Shown here one piece after another: positions 34,501 to 60,962 of a DNA stretch of 64,000 nucleotides. The notes below the pieces were generated by a model that worked only from the letters and a program-made list of their open reading frames with translations, made no database searches and was not told where the DNA came from. Positions within the stretch are counted from its first letter, which is position 1, and the number at the start of each line of letters is the position of its first letter. Source of the stretch: Saccostrea cucullata (Eukaryota); contig NW_026938254.1 of assembly GCF_032062105.1 (NCBI RefSeq), forward strand, positions 248,001-312,000, given 5' to 3'. The position numbers and the translations under genes are program-made.

Positions 34501-37500
34501 GAAATGACGGAAAAAATCCGTGGTCAACTCAGTGTATAAATAATGGACTAAACATTGGTATGAAAAACGTCAGTAAGCATTTCATTCAATGATAAATTGT
34601 ATTTGCTGACAAAGTCATTGTATCGACCATAGAATTTACGAAATGATGACTTTAAACGAGACTGTTAATATTCTTGTTTCATCAACTTGCTTGTCAATAA
34701 TTTACCTCGTTTAAGAAATTGTTCATACGTAGAGCATGCTCTTGCGTATCGAATCAAATGAGATATAAATACTCCGTATGCAGGTGATGAAGGTATATTG
34801 CTGCATAAGTAAGGGAAGTTGACGATAGAAAAGTGAAAGTCATCACGTTTATCATATAGCTTGGTTGTTAAATTACCATTAGTCTCTTTTTCAAGTAAAA
34901 TATCCAAGTATGAAGCAGAAGTGTCGGACTCTGTGGTATCTTTTGTCTCAAGCTCATCAGGATATATCGTGTCGACGTAGTGATGGAAATTATCATTATT
35001 AATTAACAATACGTCGTCTATATAATTAAATGTCGAGTTGAAGGCCACAGCAAGTGTTTTCTTCTTTTCACGTAAAAGATTTTGCATAAATTCTGCTTCA
35101 TATGAATATAAAAATAAGTCTGCTAATAACGGAGCGCAATTTGTACCCATGGGAATTCCAATAGATTGTTGGAATACCTGGTCTCCAAAAACCACATAGA
35201 TATTGTCAATCAGAAACTCAAGCATCTTCTTGATGTCAACTTCAGAGTGCTTATATGTGCAATCAGAATCTGTTTTAACAATATAATTTTTCAAATGACC
35301 AATGACGAGGTAGGTAAACTTACGAGTTCCATTTTTGTTGAAGAAGCAGCTGTCAATGATATCAAAAAGCCTGGATTTTAATTTGTCGTGGGGAATTGTT
35401 GTGTATAAAGTAGAAAAGTCGTACGTTTTTATGCTGTTGATTTTTGTAAAGTTTTGTGATTTCAAATTGTCCAAAAGTTCTTTAGAATTTTTAAGTATCC
35501 ACATCTGATTTACACCACTTCTTGAATATATAGTTGTACAGTACTCTTGAAGTTTTTCCTTCACTACTGTCAATATTTTAGTGAGAAGTAACGAAAGAGG
35601 CTTGGTTGAACATTTACTGGAACCTGCAAGATCTGGAGATTATATGTCTCCCATAGATGTTCCTGTGGCTGAATTTGATGAACCTTGTGCTTTAAGTGAA
35701 GAAGCAAGTGCACGCACCGTGCGAAAAACTTACCCAAATGGTTTCAGGACTACGAAGTTGATTTAAGTGCTCAGAGCTATAAGATAAGCTATTGTAAATA
35801 TGTAGATAACCTGTCTTGATAATATTGAAATATGAGTACTTGAAGTTTTTGTATAATTTTCATAGATCATGGTTAATACAAAGATTACTCCCAGGAAGGA
35901 AGGTCATCGATGTCCGATGTGTCATCTGAGAATTCTAGACGAGGTTGAGTGGGAGAGACATGTGGTGGAATGCGGCAGACAGCGGAGACAGAAGAAATTC
36001 GAATGCACCGATTGTGATTATGCTACTAATAAGAAAAGTGACATGGGGAGACATCGCTGCACTCGACATAGTGAAGTAGTTACGGCTGCAACTGATAGCG
36101 GCACAGATGATTGGGAACAGTTGGACCAAGGAAATCTGTCTGATGTGGTCGGGAGCACAGCACAGAGTCGTCCTGCGGAAGCCGTCTGTCAGAGGAAGCC
36201 TACCAGGCCAGCTCAAGTCTCTGCGCCGATATCCAAGTCCATAACCAGCCAGGACCCCTTGACGCCACGTGCTCCATCACCATTCCGACATCCAAAGACA
36301 ACTCCCAGAAAACGGTCCTCTGTTCATTTGGATGCACCTCCCGTACAGTTGCCATCTCTAACTCAGGATGCCAGTACGCAGACCCACATGTATCATCAGT
36401 TAGTTGATGCGAGTACCCTGACGGATAAAGACTGTGAAGAGAAAGGCACCCAAACAGAGAAAGAAAAACGGCGAAGATTAGACAGGGTATAGGAGACATA
36501 CCAAAGAGACGGGAAAACAGTCGTTGAAGTGCATGAGGAGGAAAGCTGGTTTTGAAAACAATATTCTCAGTTGTTATTTTTCTGACATTGATATTGGATG
36601 ACGATTTCATGTCATATTGGATATGTTTGCACATTATGAATCATTGGTTGATTGTTTTCTTATTTTATCAATGACAATGTTTGATGATATTTGGTTAATT
36701 TGTGTGTGCAACATTTGTTACATCTTATGAACAATGAAAGCCAGGTAGCTTTAAAATTTGTTGTTATTTTGTTTTATACCACGCGTTATATCTTTAGCCC
36801 AGGTAGTTAATGATTTAATGCGGGACGCATTCCTGGAGGCGTGGGTAATGAAACAGAACTAGGAATCGAAATGATAAATCCCATTCTGTCCTCCGGAAGC
36901 TTCGTGTGAAATAAATACTTCCTGTTTAGTTTACCCTTTCGATCCTCGGAGATCACGTGATAGTTTAGGGTATATAAGCAGCAATATCAGAGCTCTAAGT
37001 CAGTTCCAGACTGAAGTCGACACCAGTAAGTTGTTTCCAGTGAAGGTGAGAATTGTAAACTTGCTTAACAAGTCTTATGTGCCTGAATAAGGCTTTCAAG
37101 ACTGTTGTATTTATTTTACAAGTTGGTAAATATTTCTTGTTTGCTTAGCTAGGAAGCGCACGTGCTCCAGGACAGAATAGGATATTGTATATATTGTTAA
37201 TTAAAGTCCTTGATTGAGAAGTTTTATAATTATTTGATTTATTCCTTAAAATGCTCAGGCAGAGCAACCGAATCTTGTTTGTAATTAAGCAATTTTTTAA
37301 AACTATTTTTATCCATTCATTACATTTTATTAAAGTAAACTTTTCCTTTTTTATATTTTTAAGGGAGGGACTGTATTGGTTGTGCTAAAACAGGAAGTGG
37401 AAAGACCGCAGCTTTTGCTTTACCTATTCTACAAAAACTTTCAGAGGATCCTTTTGGCATTTTTGCATTGGTGTTAACCCCAACAAGGTTTTTGATATAT

Positions 37501-40500
37501 GCACATCTTTACAAATTTTTAAAATGATTTTAATACAATTTTATAAAATAGTTTGAAAATAAAAGCCATAGAACACTCACCAAAAATGATGACACTCTTG
37601 AGATGGTAGGCTAAAAATCAAGCATTGTTGCAAATGTATATTTGTTTTTACAGAGAGTTGGCCTTCCAGATAGCAGAGCAGTTTAATGTCCTTGGAAAAC
37701 CAATCAATGTTAGAGTAACTGTCATCACAGGAGGACTGGGTAAGGGCTATAATGTACAGACGTACATATATACCATAGTTATGATTATCGTACTTACAGT
37801 AGTTAATGCTCCTATTTACTATACATGTAGTTATGATGATATTGTAGACATGATGCAGCAGGGTATAGATCTGCAGGTAAAGCCCCACATAGTGATCTCC
37901 ACACCAGGGCGACTGGCTGACCACCTACAGAGCTGTGATACGTTCAGCTTACGCAAAATCAAGTTTCTGGTCAGTAGCAACAAGAAAACAAATTAACGTT
38001 TTATATTTGATTCTTTTCATTTGTAATTTGAATTCTTCAGCATGTGTTACTCTTGGTTTTTCTATACAGGTATTGGATGAGGCAGATCGCTTGATTGAAG
38101 ATGACTTTGGGGAACAGCTAGAGACTATATTTAAAGTTCTCCCCAAAAAGAGACAAACACTTCTGTTTAGTGCTACAATGACAAAACACTTGAAAGATTT
38201 ACAAGATGTGGCCATGAACAAACCTTTCTTCTGGCAACAGAAATCAGAGTAAATAATGAATAAGTAAAAACTTATGTTTAACAAATAAAAAAATCTTTTT
38301 ATGGTGAAAATTCTTTCAGTGTAATGACCAATTTTAATTAGTTCATGAATAACAAATATCATATGAAATATCTTTTATTGCTTATTTTTCTGTCATTTTG
38401 AATTTGAAAATGTAGACTTTCTTCACAAATTCACACAGTATAGACATTGGAAATTTTGAAATTTATTAAGTGAGCAAGAATCCTTGACAATGTCCTGCAA
38501 TGGTCATTTTTTTGCATTGTGTCCATTTTAACTTTGACTAGGGTAGCCACTGTTGAGGGTCTGAAGCAATACTATGTCTTGATGCCGGCAGATATAAAAG
38601 ATGCCTACCTTATACACATCCTGGACAAATATACAGAGGCCAATAAGAAAAGTTCTATCATGATCTTTACCAACACATGCAAGTAAGATCCTTAGATATA
38701 TTGCATATGTATGTTTCTGTTAAATAAAACACAGTCTCTTTTTCCAAACATTTACTAATTTAAATTAAAGCAACCTTTCACTCATCTTCGCTAGCCAAGG
38801 GTTTCTGATATGCTACTCTCCTCATGAACCCTTGGCATATGGTTAAGTCAAAAGACAGGATTGTTTTGGTCACGTGATCTCGAATCTATCAGATACACAC
38901 AAATTGTGTCAACAACAGAAATAAAGACGCGTGTTTAAAAAAAATTAAATCAAAGGTTTTTTTCAAGAATATTTAAGAAGAAGTAATTGAGTTATACTTA
39001 TTTATTGTTTACAGCTCAATGCACTTTTTAAGCTCACATGGTTTTTCGCACAATTTAAGGTCACATTCTTTTTGCAATAAAGTGAACATTTTCAACTTTT
39101 AATACGAGATATAGCCCTAATATATATTAAATATCTCATGCTAAAGGTACATATTCTTTAAATTCATTATCTTAAATGTTTTAAATGGGACTTCATTAAT
39201 GAAGAATATGACGTTACATCTGTATGATTTCACCATAGGTATTTACAAATTAAAATAATTCAGCTTTCCTTGATACTTTTTAGCTGAAATTCTCAAACTT
39301 ACATCTTAAAGATGAGTATTTTTTAAAGTACTTCATATGTTTTCCATACTCATCGTGGTTTTGTTGAAATGTAGTGCCGAAAAATGACAATGATATGTAA
39401 AGAAATCATGCAAAAGGACAGGATAAAAAAGTATTTTTCATCTTTTAAAATAGTAAATTGTTACCATTGAAAAGAAATTTCTTTTACATTTACAATCTGA
39501 AACTTAAGAATTTTGCAGTCGGGTGTATCTTTCAGGATGCTAGATTAAGAAAGTAACCCTACAAAATGCGAGCTTTTTAACATGAAAAGCAGTTGAACAA
39601 ATGAGAAATACTATTATCATCTTGCGCTTTAGAGAGTCATGTATTGTACAGAAATACAAAAATTACATGATTTGCACTGTTTTTGAGTCAATGCAAGGCA
39701 AAGTAACTGCTTTAAAAAGAACGGGTACATAAAGGCTACATTTGGCAAGAAACCACGAAAAACTATTTGGAAACTATCACAATCCATCAGCCAAGAGTGT
39801 ATCAAAATCCTACCAATAATTATGTGTGAATTTTGTTGAAAGTTAGTGAAATAAATTTAAAAGTAAGTTAAAAATCATTTTTGAAATTATTTTGTTGCCT
39901 CTTTACACAATTTTGCAAAATACAATGTGACCTTAATTTGTGCGAAAAACCATGTGAGCTTAAAAAGTGCGTTGAGCTGTATAGTACAAATCTGAACTTC
40001 AATATAGATTCTTAATCACATATTTAGAAGATATTGGATGACACCATAGCTATTCATAAAATTGCATGTTATCTTATGGATCGTTGTTTACTTGCATTTT
40101 TCACTCCCGATATTAAACAGTCAAGAAGTATCCCGAAAGCAAAAATCGCCATGTACAAAAAACAATTGCTGATTGGTCGACTGGGTGTACCGAATCCCAA
40201 TCAGAACTCGAGAAAAAAAAAAACAACTTCTATCAGCTCCGTATGCCAAGGGATTATGAGGAGAGTAGCATATCAGAAACCCTTGGCTAGCGAAGATGCC
40301 TTTCACTAGGCCAAAATGAAAGACATTTACCAGTACTTTTCTGTGTAGTCTTAGACATTCATTAGAAATATTTTGCATACAACTTGCCCGATTTTTTTAT
40401 TGTTATTTAAATGTCTTAATTTTTGGACAATGAATCTGAATATAGCTTCTTTTAAATGTGTTACAGTGCATAACTGTGAAAAATTAGAAATAGAAATATT

Positions 40501-43500
40501 TAAGACACACACAGATTCTGGGAATGATCTGTATAATTTATGTGTTATCGATACAGATTCTATGAATGATCTGTATGATTTTTGTGTTATAGATACACAC
40601 AGATTCTGGGTATGATTTATGTGTTATAGATACACACAGATTCTGGGTATGATTTATGTGTTATAGATACACACAGATTCTGGGTATGATTTATGTGTTA
40701 TAGATACACACAGATTCTGGATATGATCTGTATGATTTATGTGTTATAGATACACACAGATTCTGGGTATGATTTATGTGTTATAGATACACACAGATTC
40801 TGGGTATGATTTATGTGTTATAGATACACACAGATTCTGGATATGATCTGTATGATTTATGTGTTATAGATACACACAGATTCTGGATATGATCTGTATG
40901 ATTTATGTGTTATAGATACACACAGATTCTGGGTATGATTTATGTGTTATAGATACACACAGATTCTGGGTATGATTTATGTGTTATAGATACACACAGA
41001 TTCTGGATATGATCTGTATGATTTATGTGTTATAGATACACACAGATTCTGGGTATGATTTATGTGTTATAGATACACACAGATTCTGGATATGATCTGT
41101 ATGATTTATGTGTTATAGATACACACAGATTCTAGGAATGACCTATATGATTTATATGTGTTATAGATACACGCAGATTCTGGGTATGATCTGCACACAG
41201 CTAGGCCTTCCCTGTGTTGTGTTACACTCCATGATCAGACAGAAGGAGAGGTTGGCAGCCCTGGCTAAATTTAAATCGAATCAGATCAATATTCTGATTG
41301 CCACCGATGTGGCCAGCAGGTAAGAACACCACAGCTTTGTTTGCAGATCAACCAATCAATCCAATAAATTTTTTAACGTGGTATTTTTGAATTAGAAAAT
41401 TTTACTTTCTATACATGATAAGCCTTTAAATATGCATGCAAATATTATCAACGTAACCATTTTAATTTTACAAAGAATGAAAGATGTATAAAAACAAGCA
41501 CCAATTACATGTCCATGTATCATCCCACATTTTTCAATTCTCTTGAATCATCTTTCGTAAAAGAAACAAGTATTGATAGAAGATTGATAATTTTGTTAGA
41601 GGGTTAGACATTCCTACCGTGGACCTGATTATTAACCACAATGTTCCTAATAAACCTAAGGACTACGTACATCGTGTGGGACGTACAGCTAGAGCAGGTA
41701 AAATAGGCTGATTCATGGAACATAATTTTGATTAAAAAAATCATTTAGTGTATGAGTAATTTATATTTCTCCAAAATCTCTACAGAATGGTTAAACAGTA
41801 AGATTGTTGTTTGTAAAAGATTTAGATTATAGGCAAAATTTATTCCTAAATACAAATGTCTATTCAATTAATCTCAGATTTTATAATGGGAAAAGAGATC
41901 ATAAATGAAAATAACAGAATAAATAAAAATAAATATATTTTCAGGTCGTCATGGAACTTCGATTACCTTGGTAACCCAGTTTGATGTCCGCCTGGTTCAC
42001 GCCATTGAGGAGTTTGTCAGTATGTCTGTCTGCAATGTATTCAATACTTTTTGCATTTTTACAAAAAATTCTGACTGAATATGAGTACATCTTTGCACTG
42101 ATGTTATTTCCAACAGATTCCAAAATGGATGAGTATGATACCAAGGAAAAAGAAGTAATGAAGATTTTGGTAGAAGTTGCTACTGCAAAAAGAGAGGCAG
42201 AAATTGTAAGTGATTGTAGATAGACAGTCTTTATGTCACCAATTGTATATCATTCATTTTATCATGTACTGTATCATGTATACTTTATCTGAAATCATTC
42301 ATATCGACAAAAACATCATTGTCAATGAACTTTATTGACAACCCTTGTACAATTATTATTTTTATGTAAAGTTTCTTTCACATCTTGATAGAAATTGGAT
42401 GAAAGAGACTTTGGGGTCCAAAAGGAAATAAACAAAAGGAAGAGGCTGCTGATGGAAGGAAAGGTAACCATTCTTTAGTTTTGTAATTAGGTATTTTGTT
42501 TTGCTACTCAAGTAGAACTTCAAACTGGAATGTATCAAAGTTTTACTGTAAAATACATAATAATGAGGCATTATATTTAGAAATGCATAAGTAAATTCAA
42601 AAACCCAAATACTCGATTGGGGACTATTTCCACAGGTTGTAATTTTTGTATTTTTTTGTATTTTTCTTCTCTTCTGACACTTTCACGGATAGGTGAATTT
42701 CCAGTTTATTTGTATGCACCAACCAAATTGCGGAATTGTTTTCTTTCATTTTTCATGCGAATGTAATGATTACAATAGTCTACTTTATAAATGGCGGGTT
42801 TTGTGGTAGTAAGGTGGCGATATGGATATAAGAGATGGTAGGACTAATAACCTGCTCGTAGCATTACTCTGTTTCGTGTTAACTAACGTCATCGTCTCGG
42901 TTGATTGGAAACCATTCCAGGCCCTCTCTGACAACGGGTAACAAGTTTTATGGGGGAAATTTTACAACAAAATGTTTAGTTAGCTGTTTTTGCCATTTTC
43001 ATTAATTGGGAAATTCGAAAACCGAACCCCATGGAATTCCGAAAACTGTAACAATATTGCAAGAAATTCGAATCGTCTCTAAATATTGAAAAACGATGTG
43101 TATATCTCAGGTGCATTAAATGGTGCAACAAGATTTGTTGACAAATTTGTCGTCATCAAATTGCACGTGATTTGTGCTTTTTAGCGTTTTCCCTACGTGA
43201 CGTCATACATTTTACGGTTGAGTAATTCTGAAAATTCATTTTGGTGCATAGTAACTAACATTCTCATCTGACCAATTTTCGGTCATGCGGTCAAAAAAAT
43301 TTCGAATATTATGCTACCCTGCGTTTCTTTTTCCTTTCAGTATACATTATCTAGCAAAAAGGATAACTCTGTATAAAAATGTTTTAATCACAAAACACTG
43401 TAAAATTTTTAATAAAATTATAAAATGTTGTTAGTGTGGGAATTTATGTTGCAGCTCATACTGAAAAAAGTACAGAAACTGCATAAGTGGGTTGTGTATT

Positions 43501-45088
43501 TTTTTTTTTATACCCCCCGCAAACGAAGTTTGGGGGGATATATAGGAATCACCTTGTCCATCTTTCCGTCCGTCTGTCTGTGCAAACGTGTCCGGTCCAT
43601 ATCTTTCTTACGGAGGAACATTAGAATCTACTACTCCACACAAAGATTGCCCATGACCTAAGGGTGTGTCATGACCTTGACCCAAGGTCATTTGGGGAAG
43701 TTCAAGGTCATTGGAAGAACAATTTCATAATTTTTGTCCGGTCCATATCTTTCTTATGGATAAACTTGGTAGGTTCTAATTTCACACAAAGATTACTTAT
43801 GACCTAAAGGTTTGTCATGACCTTGACCCAAGTCATTTGGGGAAGTTCAAGGTCACTGGAAGAAAAATTTCATAATTTGTGTCCGGTCCATATCTTTCTT
43901 ATGGATAAACTTGGTAGGTTCTAATTTGACACAAAGATTGCTCATGACCTAAAGGTGTGTCATGACCTTGACCCAAGGTCATTTGGGGAAGTTCAAGGTC
44001 ACTGGAAGAAAAATTTCATAATTCGTGTCTGGTCCATATCTTTCTTATGGATAAACTTGGTAAGTTCTCATTTCACACAAAGATTGTTCATGACCTAAGG
44101 ATGTGTCATGACCTTGAGTCAAGGTCATTTGGGGAAGTTCAAGGTAACTGGAAGAAAAATTTCATAAATTGTGTCCGGTCCATATCTTTCTTTATTATGG
44201 AAAAACTTGAATCTACTACTTCACACAAACATTGCTTATGACCTGAGGTTGTGTCATGACTTTGAACCAAGGTCATTTATGCAAGTTCAAGGTCACTGAC
44301 AGCAAAAGTTCATAAATTGTGTCCGGTCCGTATATTTAGTCTATTTTTTTTTCATTTATAAAAAATATAATAAGCAATTACATTTGCACTAAAAATGCAT
44401 TTCTCTCTTCTCTTAGATCCATAAAGTATTCATGAGAGTATGCACCTCTGAAAAACCCAGCGGGGGGTATTTTGTCCCGTTTGGACAGTTCTAGTTTTTT
44501 TTGCAATAACTATAACCTTAATTCCCATACTCACAATCAAAGGAAGACATTTAATGTTCATATATGTCTGTTAAAATATGCTAAGTCATTACAATTCATA
44601 CTTTCTTAAGAAAAATCAGGTCACATCAATTCCTGAATTGACTGACTTTTGAAAATAAAACTTTGTTAATTTTTAACCACTAATAATATCTAATATGTAC
44701 CAAAAATATCAACATTGTCTTTAATTTCTGTAAAAGAGCAGCCTCTCCCAAGCAGAAGTGGGATTTAGACACCTTGTATCATATTGTCTAATACTCCTAC
44801 ATAATGTATTAGCATTTGATGTTAGATTTTTACTTTTAATTGATTTCATCACTGATCTTTTGAATCTCGTGCCCCCTGCCAAGAGGGAAAAACTGCCCAG
44901 TCTGCTTAAAGTTAGTTTTTATATGGACACTACCTGTTATTCTTGATTATGTAAACAAAAACATGTACAATGTATATGAAACATTACAGGATCCAGATGA
45001 AGAGGCCAGAAAGAAACAGAAATACATCAAGGAAAAAAATCTAGAAAGAAAGAAGAAAAGGAAAGAAAAACTTGAACAAAAGACTTGA
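28563..45088 (+). CDS. DDX49: DEAD-box RNA helicase DDX49 (Dbp8), 12 exons; start uncertain
   Basis: Exons 28563-28629 (..[15 protein letters not shown]), 37364-37487 ([41 protein letters not shown]), 37654-37739, 37848-37969, 38070-38248 (DEAD, SAT), 38542-38682, 41167-41319, 41600-41697 ([16 protein letters not shown]), 41945-42019, 42117-42205, 42392-42463 (KEINKRK) and 44990-45088. Phases are consistent. AATAAA at 46009. Confidence 0.93.
28647..29119 (+). repeat. 5' LTR (outer 8 bp missing)
   Basis: Matches 36857-37276, ends gttaca just before the PBS, and contains tatataa. Confidence 0.92.
29199..34329 (+). pseudogene. Gypsy gag-pol with disabling lesions
   Basis: ATG at 29199. In-frame stop at 29370, frameshift near 32020, stop at 33244. 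CCHC knuckle [14 protein letters not shown], protease LIDTGAS, RT YLDD, RNase H TDAS and integrase [15 protein letters not shown]. The C-terminal tail resumes at ~35587 after the nested insertion. Confidence 0.92.
34327..35586 (-). mobile_element. 5'-truncated Penelope-like retroelement (RT at C-terminus, probably Naiad clade) nested in the Gypsy integrase tail
   Basis: RT ORF 35573-34665 with [29 protein letters not shown] and SYLDI. The frame continues past a premature TAA to ~34548 with no GIY-YIG after the RT. Its 3' region matches 60690-60960. Confidence 0.85.
35869..36555 (+). CDS. Extra ORF (ORF3) of the Gypsy element: two zinc fingers + Pro/Thr-rich linker; one internal stop at 36490
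   Basis: CPMC..HVVEC and CTDC..HRCTRH. Splice acceptor ttttcatag lies 3 nt before the ATG. The frame stays open after the TAG until TGA at 36553-36555. Confidence 0.7.
36849..37276 (+). repeat. 3' LTR (outer 19 bp missing; 34-bp internal deletion)
   Basis: Starts TG directly after the PPT. About 7 substitutions versus the 5' LTR over 420 bp, counted by eye. Confidence 0.92.
38783..40298. mobile_element. Non-autonomous DNA transposon with ~60-bp TIRs and a 9-bp TSD (AcademH- or Mutator-type)
   Basis: TIR catcttcgctagccaagggtttctgatatgctactctcctcat and its reverse complement. TSD cctttcact at 38774-38782 and 40299-40307. Confidence 0.9.
39012..39979. mobile_element. Nested Tc1/mariner-type MITE
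   Basis: ~55-bp TIRs cagctcaatgcactttttaagctcacatggtttttcgcaca.. / ..tgtgcgaaaaaccatgtgagcttaaaaagtgcgttgagctg, flanked by TA on both sides. Confidence 0.8.
40500..41190 (+). repeat. Minisatellite (37/46-bp units) built from the DDX49 intron 6/exon 7 junction
   Basis: The unit atttatgtgttatag|atacacacagattctgggtatg repeats about 15 times; the last copy is the real exon start. Confidence 0.95.
43505..44496 (-). mobile_element. HINE/Helentron non-autonomous element with ~5 internal ~146-bp tandem repeats
   Basis: Hairpin ccccccgcaaac-gaa-gtttgggggg, (tccg/tctg)n, repeated catgaccttgacccaaggtcatttggggaagttcaaggtca, and a ctagtt end. Confidence 0.8.
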
Positions 45089-50800: not shown

Positions 50801-53800
50801 CAAAATCTTTCAAATTCAAGATGAGCTGATGCCATACATACAGTATAAGGTTAAAGTTTGTAAGCTCTAAGCAAGTCCATTCCCAAGTATAAGTAGTGAC
50901 CATACGTAATGGATGATGCATCTAGGTTCACATATTCTCAGATCTGCTTAAGATGCTGCAACTGATCTACATTTTCTAGATGATTGCATGTTAAGTTTTT
51001 GAGCAGGACTATTTGTCATAGAGATTCAACCAAGACTAAACTTGCTTGGATTTTGAATCTAGGGATGCACAATACAACAACATTAAAAAATTTTAGTTTG
51101 AGACTTCCATAACTTATAGAAAATAAATCTAGATGAGCTTGATAATCTTTTATATCTTTTGTTTTTAGGGAAAACTTTATTGGTGAAGAAGTTGGCAGAG
51201 TGTCTGGACGTTCCGTTTGCGATGTGTGATTGTACGTCTATCACGGCTGCTGGTTACGTCGGAGAAGATGTGGAGTCCGTCATCTACAGACTACTGGAGA
51301 ATGCAGACTTCGATGTTGAAAAATGTCAACAAGGTTAAACTGACTTTTAATGATGAAAGAGTTCTTAATGCAATGTCAACAAACATTCCTGGCAATAATG
51401 AATTAAAAGAAATATTTGAGTTTTTAGGTCATGTAAGTCACTCAAAAATATGGGACTGAAATGTATGAAAACTTCCTGTCCTAGTTTGAATTTTTAAGTT
51501 TCTTCAAATGATGGCCCACAGGGGCAGGGTGGGCTGCAGTTGTGATAAAAAATTTACAAAGGATAAAAAAAATGAAAAAAAACTTTTCCTAAAGAACTCC
51601 AAAGCCATGATTAATCATAAAACTAGGTATGATAAAGTAGATTAGAACTTGAATAATGTGTAATGTACTCCAGATGAAACTGCTTGTATTCAATTTTTGC
51701 AGTTCATATTTTAGATGGATATTATACAGTAATTAAAAAATAATACAACATCTTGTAGGTATTGTGTATCTTGATGAAGTGGACAAGATCAGAAGCATTG
51801 TGCCTGGAAATTCCTCAAGGGGCATTAACTCCTCCCGAGATGTAGGTGGAGAGGGTGTACAACAAGCTTTCCTCAAACTCCTGGAATCTAACGTCGTCAG
51901 TGTCACTGATAAAATGGGGAAGAGAAATGCACATGAGACCACCTACCAAGTGGACACCACTAACATTCTATTTATAGCCTCAGGGGCATTTACTGGTATC
52001 TCAGAAATTATACATGGCAGAACCAATCAAAAGGTGAGAGCAGTGTGATCAATGGGAAGAAGAATCTCCAAATATCGAGATTCAGAGTGGGTTGAAATCT
52101 TGAGCCAGAGATGAATACCACCACCACAAGGGGCTTAATTGTTTGTTGTTTCGTTTCAGTGAATTATATGTATATGTGGTTTTATGACTGTATATGTTGT
52201 TTTGGATTTATCCATATGGCTTTGACACTTGTAGGCATTGTTGACCATTGGCTTTTTGTTTTACTTGAATGACCTGGATTTTCCCCCAAACATATGTTTT
52301 ACATATTACCCAAGTTGTACATTTTGTAACATAGAGAAGCCTTTAACTTCTATTTTTGTTTTTGTTTCAGAGTTTTGGCTTTGGTAATCATGATGATAAA
52401 TCTATTCTGATGGAAGAGGAGGAGAGAAAACTCTCTGACATAGAACAGTTAAACCTGAAGTATGATAGACTTCTGAGTGAGGTGGAGACCAGTGATGTGG
52501 TCAAGTTTGGACTGATTCCCGAATTTGTGGGCCGGTTCCACATAGTGGTATCCTTACACAGTCTTAATGAGGATCACCTAGTGAAAATCTTAACAGAAAC
52601 TAAAAACTCTCTTATAGCACAGAAGGAATTCCTGTTGTCTTATGATGAGGTATTACAGTTATATTACATGTAATCTCATTAAATTTACAATAACTTTTGA
52701 AGATATGACTGCCTGGCAGCAAGTTTTAGTATTAGTGAAGTGAATGATAAGCTAATAGATTTTCATAGTGTTGAGCTAATTATATTTCTATTGTGCTGAG
52801 CTAAAGGTATTTCCCAGGTGTTGATCTAAAGGTATTTCCCTGGTGTTGATCTAATGGTATTTCCCTGGTGTTGATCTAATGGTATTTCCATGGTGCTGAG
52901 CTAATTATATTTCCATGGTGCTGAGCTAATTGTATTTCAAAGAGCCTATTTTGATGGATTTCTTATTTTTTTCAGTGCCAGCTGATTTTTACAGATAGTG
53001 CTCTAAGAGCCATAGCACAAAAAGCCATAAAGAAGAAAACAGGAGCCAGAGGCATTCATCACATACTGGTTAGTTTCCTTAAACTACTTACACTAAACTC
53101 AGTTAACCTAAAGTCAGAGGAATCTGTGAATTTTATTCAATTCCCTAAATCCATTTAATATGTAGCCAATTCACAATATACATACACAGTACCGGGTAAA
53201 ACTCAGTTATAACAAAGTCACTGGGCCCTATTTCGCTATATCTGTTCTTCGTTGTATCCGTATATTTAGCTGGGGATCCAAGATTACTTCGCTATATCCG
53301 TGAATTCGCAATATCTGTGTTCATAGTAAACAAGTTTTACTGTATAGTTTTCCTTCAAGTATGAATACGAATATGTTTTAGAAAGTATAAAATAAAAATC
53401 TTACTTAAGAGCACTTACATTTTTTGATAGATTCAATTTGAAATATAAATACTAAGGTACCTGTAAGGGATACAGAAATACTCTCTTAATCCATAAAGTT
53501 GATATACATGTGTAAGAATTCATTACAATGTACATGTATAAGAGTTATGCCCCTTTACTCTTAGATACAGTATTTTTGTGAAAAACAGAACGTTTATATA
53601 TATATATAGAATTAACTTTTAAAAAAAGAATGTTATGAATAAAAATATTATGAATATGAGAATATAAAAAGGTAAAATATAGTTGATGTCATCATTTAGT
53701 TGACACACAAAAAGGTGATTACCGTCTCATAAAAAGAGACTTGCTTGCCTCATTGAATCGAGAAATTTTGACCTGAGAAACTTAAGATTGATTTCTTTTG

Positions 53801-57581: not shown

Positions 57582-59031
57582 AGCTCACCTGAGTTGAAAG
57601 CTCAAGTGAGCTTTGTATATATATTCTTTGTCAAAAAAAAAAACTGCGTCTAAAATATTACAATGTACTAATTTTGTGTCCGTCTGTCTGTAAACTTTTC
57701 ACATTTTCGACTTCTTCTGAAAAGAAATTTATTTTGCCATTTTGGGTGGCCAATTTCAACCAAACTTGCCACAAAGTATCCTTGGGTGAAGGGGATTCAG
57801 GAAATTTTTGCTTTTTCAAATGAAGGGCCACGCCCTCATTGCAAGGGGAGATACTTCTTTATGCTTTGGGAATTAATGAAAATTTGGTGGTAAATTCATT
57901 TTACTTTCTTTTAAATTTACAGTTTCTTAAAAATCTTCTTCAATCAGAACCACTGTGCCAGGAAAGATGAAACTGATGGGGAAGCATGCTCAGGTAGTGT
58001 AGATTCTAATTTGTTCAAATCATGACCTCCGGGGGTAGGGCGGGGCCAAAATGGCCGACCAAAGTTTAACATAGAAATATATAGGAAAATTCTTTAAAAA
58101 AATCTTCTTCTTAAGAATGACAAAGCCAAATTCATCATATTTATATGGAAGCATCCTCAGGTAGTGTAGATTCAAATTTTTTTTCAAATCATGACCCCCG
58201 GGTGTAGGGCGGGGCCAAAATGACCGACCAAAGTTTTACATAGAAATATATAAAAAATTCTTTAAAAATCTTCTTCTCAAGATTGACAAAGCCATAATTC
58301 ATCATATTCATATGGAAGCATGCTCAGGTAGTGTAGATTCAAGTTTGTTCAAATCATGACCCCCGGGTGTAGGGTGGGGCCAAAATGGCCGACCAAAGTT
58401 TAACATAGAAATATATTGGAAAATTCTTTTAAAATCTTCTCAAGAATAACAAAGCCATAATTGATCATATTTATATAGAAGTATCCTCAGGTAGTGTGGA
58501 TTCAAGTTTGTTCAAATCATGACCCCCGGGGGTAGGGCGGGGCTAAAATGGCCGATCAAATTTTTACATAGAAATATATAGGAAAATTCTTTTAAAATCT
58601 TCTTCTCAAGAATGACAAAGCCATAATTCATCATATTTATATGGAAGCATGCTCAGGTAGTGTAGATTCAATTTTGTTCAAATCATGACCCCCGGGGTTA
58701 GGGCGGGGCCAAAATGGCCGACCAAAGTTTAACATAGAAATATATAGGAAAATTCTTTAAAAAAATCTTCTTCTTAAGAATGACAAAGCCAAATTCATCA
58801 TATTTATATGGAAGCATCCTCAGGTAGTGTAGATTCAATTTTTTTTCAAATCATGACCACCAGGGGTAGGGCGGGGCCAAAATGGCAGACCAAATTTTTT
58901 CAAGATATTATATAGGAAAATTCTTTAAAAATCATTTGCTAAAAAATAACAAATCCGATTGGTCATGGGACTACTTTTGGATTTAAACTCTACAATAAAA
59001 AGCCATTTTCTACTTTTTCCTACCCTTAGTG

Positions 59032-60684: not shown

Positions 60685-60962
60685 ATTTCTTGATCATGAT
60701 AATGAGCACCTGGCGGGTTAATCTCAGTTGAGATTCTGCTGGGCTAGATATTTGGAATTGACGCCCGCAGAGCGTCAAGTCCAAATATCTAGCCCAGCAG
60801 AATCTCAACAGAGATTACTGGCGGGTGTGACCGGTCGGCAAGGGGTTTCACTCCTTCATGATACCTGATCCCACCTCTAATGTTTTAGAGGTCCGGTCAT
60901 ATTCGCTCTGTCCCTGATTTGTATATTTTAAATGGACTGTTGAGCCTGTTCGTTATTTCAAT
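60685..60962 (+). mobile_element. Penelope-like element 3' fragment, interrupted by a hairpin MITE
   Basis: Similar to the reverse complement of 34335-34500 (ggcgggtgtgaccggtcggca..cctgatcccacctct..gaggtccg..gttcgttatttc). Confidence 0.75.
60719..60817. mobile_element. 99-bp fold-back MITE with a 9-bp TSD
   Basis: 46-bp arms (taatctc..gacgc / gcgtc..gagatta) around a 7-nt loop. TSD ctggcgggt at 60710-60718 and 60818-60826. Confidence 0.9.

Follow-up and report, generated by a model that had tools for sequence, protein, structure and literature searches.

A two-finger third gene behind pol in a Gypsy lineage of the oyster Saccostrea cucullata

The window analysed here is a stretch of 64,000 nucleotides of Saccostrea cucullata DNA (contig NW_026938254.1, positions 248,001 to 312,000), and our subject is a Ty3/Gypsy retrotransposon that occupies 28647 to 37276 of it. 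Between the tail of pol and the polypurine tract (PPT), the element carries a sense open reading frame of 228 codons, called ORF3 here, with a single TAG at 36490. An earlier note on this DNA, made from the sequence alone (the original prediction), had described this frame and taken it for an accessory gene of the retroelement rather than an envelope gene (env). This has held: ORF3 is no one-off but the third gene of an extensive Gypsy lineage in this genome, conserved behind pol and under purifying selection. Its position, its conservation, the selection on it, its co-inheritance with integrase, its non-envelope nature, the conserved splice acceptor and LC8-type motifs, and its repeated clean deletion are established. 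The features of the window copy are listed below (LTR, long terminal repeat; PBS, primer-binding site; RT, reverse transcriptase).

28647..29119, plus strand: 5' LTR with an altered start; differs from the 3' LTR by 7 substitutions over 420 aligned bases
28795..28829, plus strand: TATA box (28795) and initiator-like TCAGTT (28824-28829), read from the sequence
28867..28875, plus strand: candidate major splice donor in the R region of the LTR, AAG/GTGAGA, GT at 28870; predicted, from family comparison
29126..29148, plus strand: PBS, of a tRNA type that we take to be Leu; from the sequence and sister copies
29146..29154, plus strand: donor TCG/GTAAGG of the original prediction, GT at 29149, at the PBS end; family-specific, the weaker candidate
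29199..34325, plus strand: gag-pol in one frame, with CCHC knuckle, protease, RT, RNase H and integrase
34326..35632, minus strand: secondary RT-bearing insertion of ~1.3 kb that interrupts the integrase tail; target duplication of 7 bp
35633..35775, plus strand: rest of the pol tail, end approximate
35845..35865, plus strand: pyrimidine tract and AG acceptor (AG at 35864-35865), 3 nt 5' of the ORF3 ATG
35869..36555, plus strand: ORF3, ATG at 35869, TGA at 36553-36555; 228 codons, with the premature TAG at 36490-36492 read as X
36818..36830, plus strand: short palindrome of 13 nt before the PPT, kept in ORF3-bearing and ORF3-less relatives
36835..36848, plus strand: PPT, read from the sequence
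36849..37276, plus strand: 3' LTR, final ~20 nt missing

The order protease, RT, RNase H, integrase, together with the LTRs, PBS, PPT and target duplication, places the element in Ty3/Gypsy. The window copy itself is dead: gag-pol is interrupted by two stops, at 29370 and 33244, and by a frameshift near 32025, its tail holds the RT-bearing insertion, the ends are damaged, and ORF3 has its own stop. The insertion is an antisense, truncated retroelement that is absent from sister copies and so foreign to the family (RVT_1 match with E 3.5e-5, under the cut-off); a related piece was found at 60848-60895. At the damaged outer ends (28640-28647 and 37276) there is no target duplication. Sister copies are intact there, with LTRs of 435-455 nt that start with TG and end with CA, and with a 4-bp target duplication.

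ORF3 in sister copies and across the lineage

The sister set consisted of 13 other near-full copies from the same genome. Twelve have both LTRs, the pairs being 97-100% identical, and 11 of these show the 4-bp target duplication. ORF3 was open for its 228 codons in 10 of the 13 and broken in 3; gag-pol was unbroken in 3. In the sisters, ORF3 is thus neither absent, nor riddled with frameshifts, nor a one-off captured fragment. Intactness by itself was rejected as a sign of selection after insertion: three breaks were counted in 13 x 228 codons of ORF3 and roughly 39 (by hand) in 13 x 1762 codons of gag-pol, and since the two decay similarly per codon, an open ORF3 only shows that the frame was open in the founders. 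The original prediction had expected a ratio of non-synonymous to synonymous substitution rates (dN/dS) below 1 in related copies. This proved to be the case, with values of 0.33-0.46 for the window ORF3 against 10 sisters and of 0.12-0.34 in five pairs from other subfamilies. Among the 11 ORF3 sequences, changes shared between copies gave a dN/dS of 0.23 (10 synonymous, 8 not, P = 0.002), and singleton changes 0.69 (P = 0.15); in deeper pairs, synonymous sites are saturated. We conclude that ORF3 is under purifying selection in the lineages tested.

A protein search of the genome gave at least 136 ORF3 matches (150 of 194 candidates scored). Gypsy pol was directly upstream in 20 of 20 distant loci, hand-picked across the score range, and in 17 of 17 nearer ones. 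Among 16 family representatives, ORF3 is 25-59% identical and integrase 53-96%, and the trees of the two share five well-supported groups, with deeper branches lacking resolution. In the pair L082/L083 the integrases are 96% identical and the ORF3s 54%; recombination between pol and ORF3 is therefore likely. Tandem element arrays with a spacing of ~6.7 kb, apparently sharing LTRs, were also seen (L064-L068 and L090; C6271, C9170, C15463).

Named homologues came from Saccostrea, Ostrea, Crassostrea/Magallana, Mytilus, Argopecten, Mizuhopecten and Pinctada (oysters, mussel, scallops and pearl oyster), often as several near-identical paralogues. The closest are Saccostrea proteins, some of which are probably these same genome copies and thus not independent. 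No full-length homologue under the name of a eukaryote outside bivalves occurred among the matches, most of which are nameless. The homologues are labelled 'uncharacterized', 'C2H2' or 'RE1-silencing transcription factor-like'. REST/NRSF is a large multi-finger host gene, and this identity was rejected, the homologues being 206-292 aa long, with two fingers, and lying inside Gypsy elements in this genome. One homologue (P0134) is filed under the metagenome-assembled genome of a bacterial symbiont of bivalves, on a contig of 1.9 kb, and is probably host contamination. A metagenome scan for element context in other species returned one match of 16 residues, which is uninformative.

Zinc fingers and LC8-type motifs

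The proteins were compared in alignments of 14 and 60 sequences. As the original prediction had described, the window ORF3 has two fingers, C-x2-C-x12-H-x3-C followed by C-x2-C-x12-H-x4-H (residues 15-67), a Pro/Thr-rich linker, which is disordered, and a charged C-terminus. The C2HC finger is kept in 59 of the 60 homologues, the C2H2 finger in 55, an N-terminal M-x-x-TK-x-T in 55, a basic RK-x-T-x-P motif in 52, and an acidic W/L-x-D-P motif (W-x-x-DP in the window) in 50. The sequence TPRK presumably resembles a CDK site or a minor-groove motif. Both the pattern C-x2-C-x12-H-x3-5-H/C and the beta-beta-alpha fold are those of C2H2 zinc fingers; PF00096 was matched by 12 of 14 members at E <= 0.1, PF13909 was over its cut-off in member 1, and Lys or Arg stands at finger helix positions -1 and 6 in all 14. 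AlphaFold2 modelled two confident fingers and a beta-hairpin at 202-227, with a long disordered stretch between them (mean pLDDT 66, pTM 0.26). In the PDB fold search, DNA-bound CTCF fingers rank first, with no match at E <= 0.001. Fold searches returned generic C2H2 proteins alone, below significance, and no viral fold at E <= 0.001, while the Atlas structure search gave nameless clusters at 0.94 plus generic C2H2 proteins.

Neither a hydropathy scan of the 60 homologues nor the structure model revealed a signal peptide or membrane segment in the conserved frame, in agreement with the earlier claim; two homologues rise above 1.6 in 19-residue hydropathy, each within an N-terminal overhang upstream of the conserved Met. 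Fused Gag/Pol-ORF3 forms were absent from five longer matches (E <= 1e-8), two of which were checked (multi-finger or finger-only) and three judged by annotation. In L082, L083, L085, L086 and L093, the TQT motif is immediately preceded by a further, CPCC-like cluster of Cys and His, perhaps a metal site shared in a dimer.

Three repeated motifs, DASTQT, DASTLT and EKGTQT, had been noted in connection with binding of the dynein light chain LC8. All are present; DASTQT and EKGTQT are of the LC8 type, but DASTLT lacks the Gln of the LC8 anchor, which leaves two such motifs in the window ORF3 and not three. A TQT, VQT or IQT anchor was found in the C-terminal half of 52 of the 60 homologues (500 shuffles: mean 7.1, maximum 14). 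Thirteen have more than one, and ORF3 carries 1-3 motifs. The residue at -4 is D, N, E or S in 57 of 68 anchors, and that at +2 is D or E in most; LC8 binders prefer such residues at both places (PMC6607443). The ORF3 motifs therefore have the make-up of LC8 client motifs, namely a TQT-type anchor, a hydrogen-bonding -4 residue and a strand-breaking +2 residue in a disordered region.

When the genome's own LC8 was co-folded with ORF3 residues 160-228, the score was 0.54, against 0.02 for the best of three controls, with a contact agreement of at least 92% and a partner pLDDT of at least 55. The mark used is reached by 51 of 78 solved pairs and by 2 of 108 mismatched pairs; passes with a score of 0.60 or less were those of just 5 of the 78 solved pairs and of all 4 mismatches that passed. 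LC8-peptide complexes have already been solved, so the pass may reflect memory, and the co-folding lends weak support to binding.

Predicted splice signals of the ORF3 transcript

The strong acceptor that the original prediction placed at AG 35864-35865 is conserved. A pyrimidine tract with a YAG 0-16 nt before the ORF3 ATG was found at 20 of 21 loci, which represent roughly 14 independent families (with the start Met assigned manually in three), compared to 10 of 230 control ATGs in untranslated regions and LTRs, and 785 of 10,500 shuffled spacers. The donor fared differently. The proposed CG/GTAAGG at 29149 is present, and kept in 10 of 12 sisters of the window's own family, but it is not conserved across families: at the post-PBS position of 12 families, none reaches 7 of 9 matches to U1, and five reach 6, which is also the window's score. 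Its use would leave two ATGs (28901 and 29075) and a poly(A) signal (ATTAAA at 29024) in exon 1. It was rejected as a family-wide donor, and the junction 29148 to 35866 that had been proposed is not supported.

A more general candidate lies in the LTR itself. A TATA box occupies a comparable place in 20 of 22 ORF3-bearing LTRs viewed, and transcription of the window copy is predicted to start near 28826. At 60-120 nt past the TATA, a donor with at least 7 of 9 U1 matches occurs in 11 of 13 families (against a mean of 2.2 and a maximum of 6 in shuffles, and 0-3 of 13 in adjacent windows; on the antisense strand the figure was 10 of 91). With this donor, the first exon is free of ATGs in 10 of 11 families; in the window it would be about 44 nt long and likewise ATG-free. 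The donor also fits in all 3 additional ORF3-bearing LTRs for which a TATA was called, and 2 more had no such call. By these comparisons, 28869 to 35866 appears a better junction than 29148 to 35866. For foamy viruses, a donor in the R region is described that precedes the poly(A) signal and also controls the choice of poly(A) site (PMC3694450). Processed copies of ORF3, spliced and reinserted, were found neither among own-family DNA matches, none of which starts at the acceptor, nor among the 17 nearer loci.

Repeated loss and the possible role of ORF3

Among the 48 closest integrase matches, 15 had no ORF3 match, and absence was confirmed in all 15: four share one 730-nt deletion relative to L077, a fifth carries a more extensive one, and the other ten make up an ORF3-less subfamily. 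A further 20 distant integrase matches outside the ORF3 list were taken from 144; as they were chosen to lack ORF3 matches, they give no genome-wide share. ORF3 was intact in 3 of these, broken in 2 and missing in 15, where pol ends 88-207 nt from the 3' LTR and the LTR pairs are 96-100% identical. Copies with and without ORF3 form near-identical sister pairs (93-98% over the body) in L093/L104, L090/L106, L113/L114-L115, L107/L110, L100/L102 and L109/L105, and acceptor and ORF3 were removed together in every ORF3-less pair compared. In some of the copies that lack ORF3, gag-pol is unbroken and the two LTRs are identical. A quick integrase tree counts 9 changes; L081 and L089 were excluded (short matches), and L100 and L107, with broken ORF3, were labelled as lacking it, which affects the count. 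ORF3-less sisters thus appeared in six families or more, and they continued to transpose. Taken with the selection on the gene, this pattern indicates that ORF3 is old, selected and dispensable in cis.

We favour, with a probability of about 0.45, the reading that ORF3 is a dispensable nuclear regulator with two fingers, dimerised by LC8 and made from spliced RNA. Transcription would begin in the LTR, and part of the transcripts would very probably be spliced to give an ORF3 RNA. The donor is probably that of the R region, and joining 28869 to 35866 would remove the PBS and gag-pol. It is quite likely, from the motifs and the co-folding, that LC8 binds the TQT motif and holds two ORF3 chains parallel; two weak fingers might thereby become a four-finger binder. 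Acidic-aromatic patches can act as activation domains, and the dimer may, at odds slightly short of even, act in trans on its own LTR, raising or timing transcription through such patches. ORF3-less sisters would either borrow the protein or forgo the boost. A broader proposal, which we consider doubtful, is that a circuit in the style of complex retroviruses evolved independently here, with an LTR-spliced trans-regulator, an LC8 dimeriser, a shared good and recurrent ORF3-less cheaters, and that many bivalve 'REST-like' C2H2 genes are this transposon gene.

Several observations weigh against the favoured reading. The recent activity of ORF3-less subfamilies indicates that transposition does not depend on ORF3. 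Besides DNA, C2H2 fingers bind RNA and proteins, and no binding site was identified for ORF3. The element context of ORF3 is established within this one genome, and the correlation of pairwise ORF3 and integrase identities is weak (Spearman 0.18, with 187 of 5000 permutations as high). The donor window and the TATA boxes were picked by eye after viewing, and the score is a crude U1 match; moreover, of 11 ORF3-less copies with a called TATA, 5 retain the LTR donor, which may thus act in the control of polyadenylation and need not serve ORF3 alone. No splice joint was found in eight low-coverage RNA runs compared with a sister copy (three raw runs of 55, 12 and 12 reads, and five contig sets), a coverage insufficient for a decision; in X1, X3 and X9, contigs run through the acceptor without splicing, although X1 and X3 may be DNA. 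Finally, many TQT peptides fail to bind LC8 (PMC6607443).

Other roles were weighed against the same evidence. ORF3 could be an export factor of the Rev or CERV kind, which binds unspliced genomic RNA and takes it out of the nucleus. Joint loss of acceptor and ORF3 would then remove the intron, and hence the need for such a factor; the basic RK motif (52/60) would fit, and CERV of the element Cer1 is a protein of this type, with a spliced mRNA, a Cys finger and multimers (PMC10309623). The argument is circular, however, unless the switch itself is useful, ORF3 being the sole predicted spliced product. The finger residues and fold resemble DNA-binding C2H2, and active ORF3-less lineages show that ORF3 is not required once the acceptor is gone; we hold this role to be unlikely. 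Quite unlikely, too, is a part in counter-defence, in which ORF3 would blunt host silencing by guarding element chromatin or diverting LC8, a shared good exploited by ORF3-less sisters. Repeated loss beside ORF3-bearing sisters and the faster divergence of ORF3 than of integrase point that way, and LC8 reportedly dimerises the piRNA silencing complex of Drosophila. To our knowledge that complex is not known in molluscs, however; dN/dS is well under 1 wherever tested, and a protein with 1-3 motifs would be an ineffective sponge for so abundant a hub.

An adaptor of the particle or integration complex, travelling with Gag or integrase, with LC8 for transport and fingers for target choice, seems improbable. 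The LC8-type motifs suit it, and viral LC8 partners exist, but LC8 is mostly a dimeriser (PMC6607443), ORF3-less copies insert with normal ends, and the lack of fused forms among the longer matches is a weak point against it. The position between pol and PPT, the acceptor and the env-like repeated loss are what an envelope-like or fusogenic protein for cell-to-cell spread would show; with zinc fingers and disorder in a conserved frame free of signal or membrane segments, and no match to a viral fold, this is very improbable. The same low standing goes to a passively carried host zinc-finger fragment without a role. Databases do name homologues as host 'REST-like' genes, and ORF3 decays after insertion about as fast as gag-pol, but purifying selection refutes this explanation for the lineages tested; fixed motifs at 25-59% identity and a place behind pol in 20 of 20 loci also speak against it.

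Extra frames in the env position of LTR retrotransposons are already known (PMC5408684, PMC8220671, bioRxiv 10.1101/2025.03.14.642691), and most have no known function. Like ORF3, the env of insect errantiviruses (iERVs) is a third frame behind pol in Gypsy, lost many times in active lineages; it is expressed from a spliced subgenomic RNA, which for ORF3 is predicted from sequence, and its product has a signal peptide, furin site, fusion peptide and membrane anchor, none of which occurs in the zinc-finger, disordered ORF3 (PMC12992720). Moreover, the donor predicted for ORF3 sits within the LTR, and the first exon would not be coding. The CERV protein of the C. elegans element Cer1 is a nuclear, multimeric non-env Gypsy regulator with a Cys finger and a spliced mRNA, to which ORF3 can be likened; as described, it has a leucine zipper in common with Gag, three folded domains and a C4-type loop, and is required for export (PMC10309623). 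Compared by description, ORF3 differs in its C2HC/C2H2 fingers, its TQT motifs, its place wholly behind pol and its dispensability. The ORF3s of bdelloid LTR elements are also non-env genes in the env position with family-specific gain and loss, but they are enzymes or membrane proteins (GDSL esterase, DEDDy exonuclease, coiled-coil, transmembrane), and the word 'zinc' is absent from the main text of that paper (PMC5408684). The sORF2 of MDG1-group elements, an accessory frame of env-less Gypsy, encodes a short transmembrane fusogen, lies mostly upstream of gag and uses unspliced RNA (bioRxiv 10.1101/2025.03.14.642691); ORF3 has no transmembrane helix such as the single one of sORF2/FAST fusogens.

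In the host protein ASCIZ/ATMIN the fingers are N-terminal. It resembles ORF3 as a zinc-finger transcription factor with a disordered tail, in which TQT motifs bind LC8 and tune activity (PMC5963919). It is large, with many motifs, whereas ORF3 is mobile, with 1-3 motifs and two fingers; a weak Atlas structural row (TM 0.25) speaks for analogy, not homology. The foamy virus transactivator Tas is an accessory regulator encoded between pol/env and the 3' LTR. In foamy viruses the R-region donor precedes the poly(A) signal in each LTR (PMC3694450), an arrangement also predicted for the ORF3 element, but they are vertebrate retroviruses with an env and an internal promoter, and the likeness drawn here is one of layout.

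We found no description in the literature of an ORF3 with C2H2 fingers and LC8 motifs in bivalve Gypsy elements; Repbase reports and subscription journals lay outside the search, and a database note may exist. The words 'ORF' and 'zinc' are absent from the main text of the main mollusc LTR survey (PMC6238403), and 'zinc finger' from the portion of an env survey that was covered (PMC13524379). With its readable anatomy, deep bivalve conservation and natural deletion controls in at least six families, ORF3 makes the role of an accessory gene in env-less elements directly testable. It is a candidate transposon-encoded client of the LC8 hub, which Drosophila is said to use on the silencing side, and bivalve annotations may be counting transposon genes as host C2H2 transcription factors.

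The palindrome before the PPT was considered as a target of ORF3 and judged unlikely, because it is constant while finger residues vary and is retained in ORF3-less copies. Around the PBS, a spacer of 4-6 nt follows the LTR end, and U5 carries TTCGAACCC at 29099-29108, which extends the complement to the PBS tRNA and may widen the contact between primer and template.

The element lies in sense orientation inside an intron of a DEAD-box helicase gene (28587-28629, and 37364 onward), which we take to be DDX49/Dbp8-like from its motifs. An empty-site allele was looked for at this intron and not found. The host donor is at 28630, and the element begins 17 nt after it. The host exon could be spliced to the ORF3 acceptor and so run into a premature stop, and the donor of the 3' LTR could splice to the next host exon. 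Elsewhere in the window, tandem repeat arrays occur at 40453-41228, 43588-44417, 52734-52963 and 57946-58956, with units of 37/46, 146, 25 and ~166 nt.

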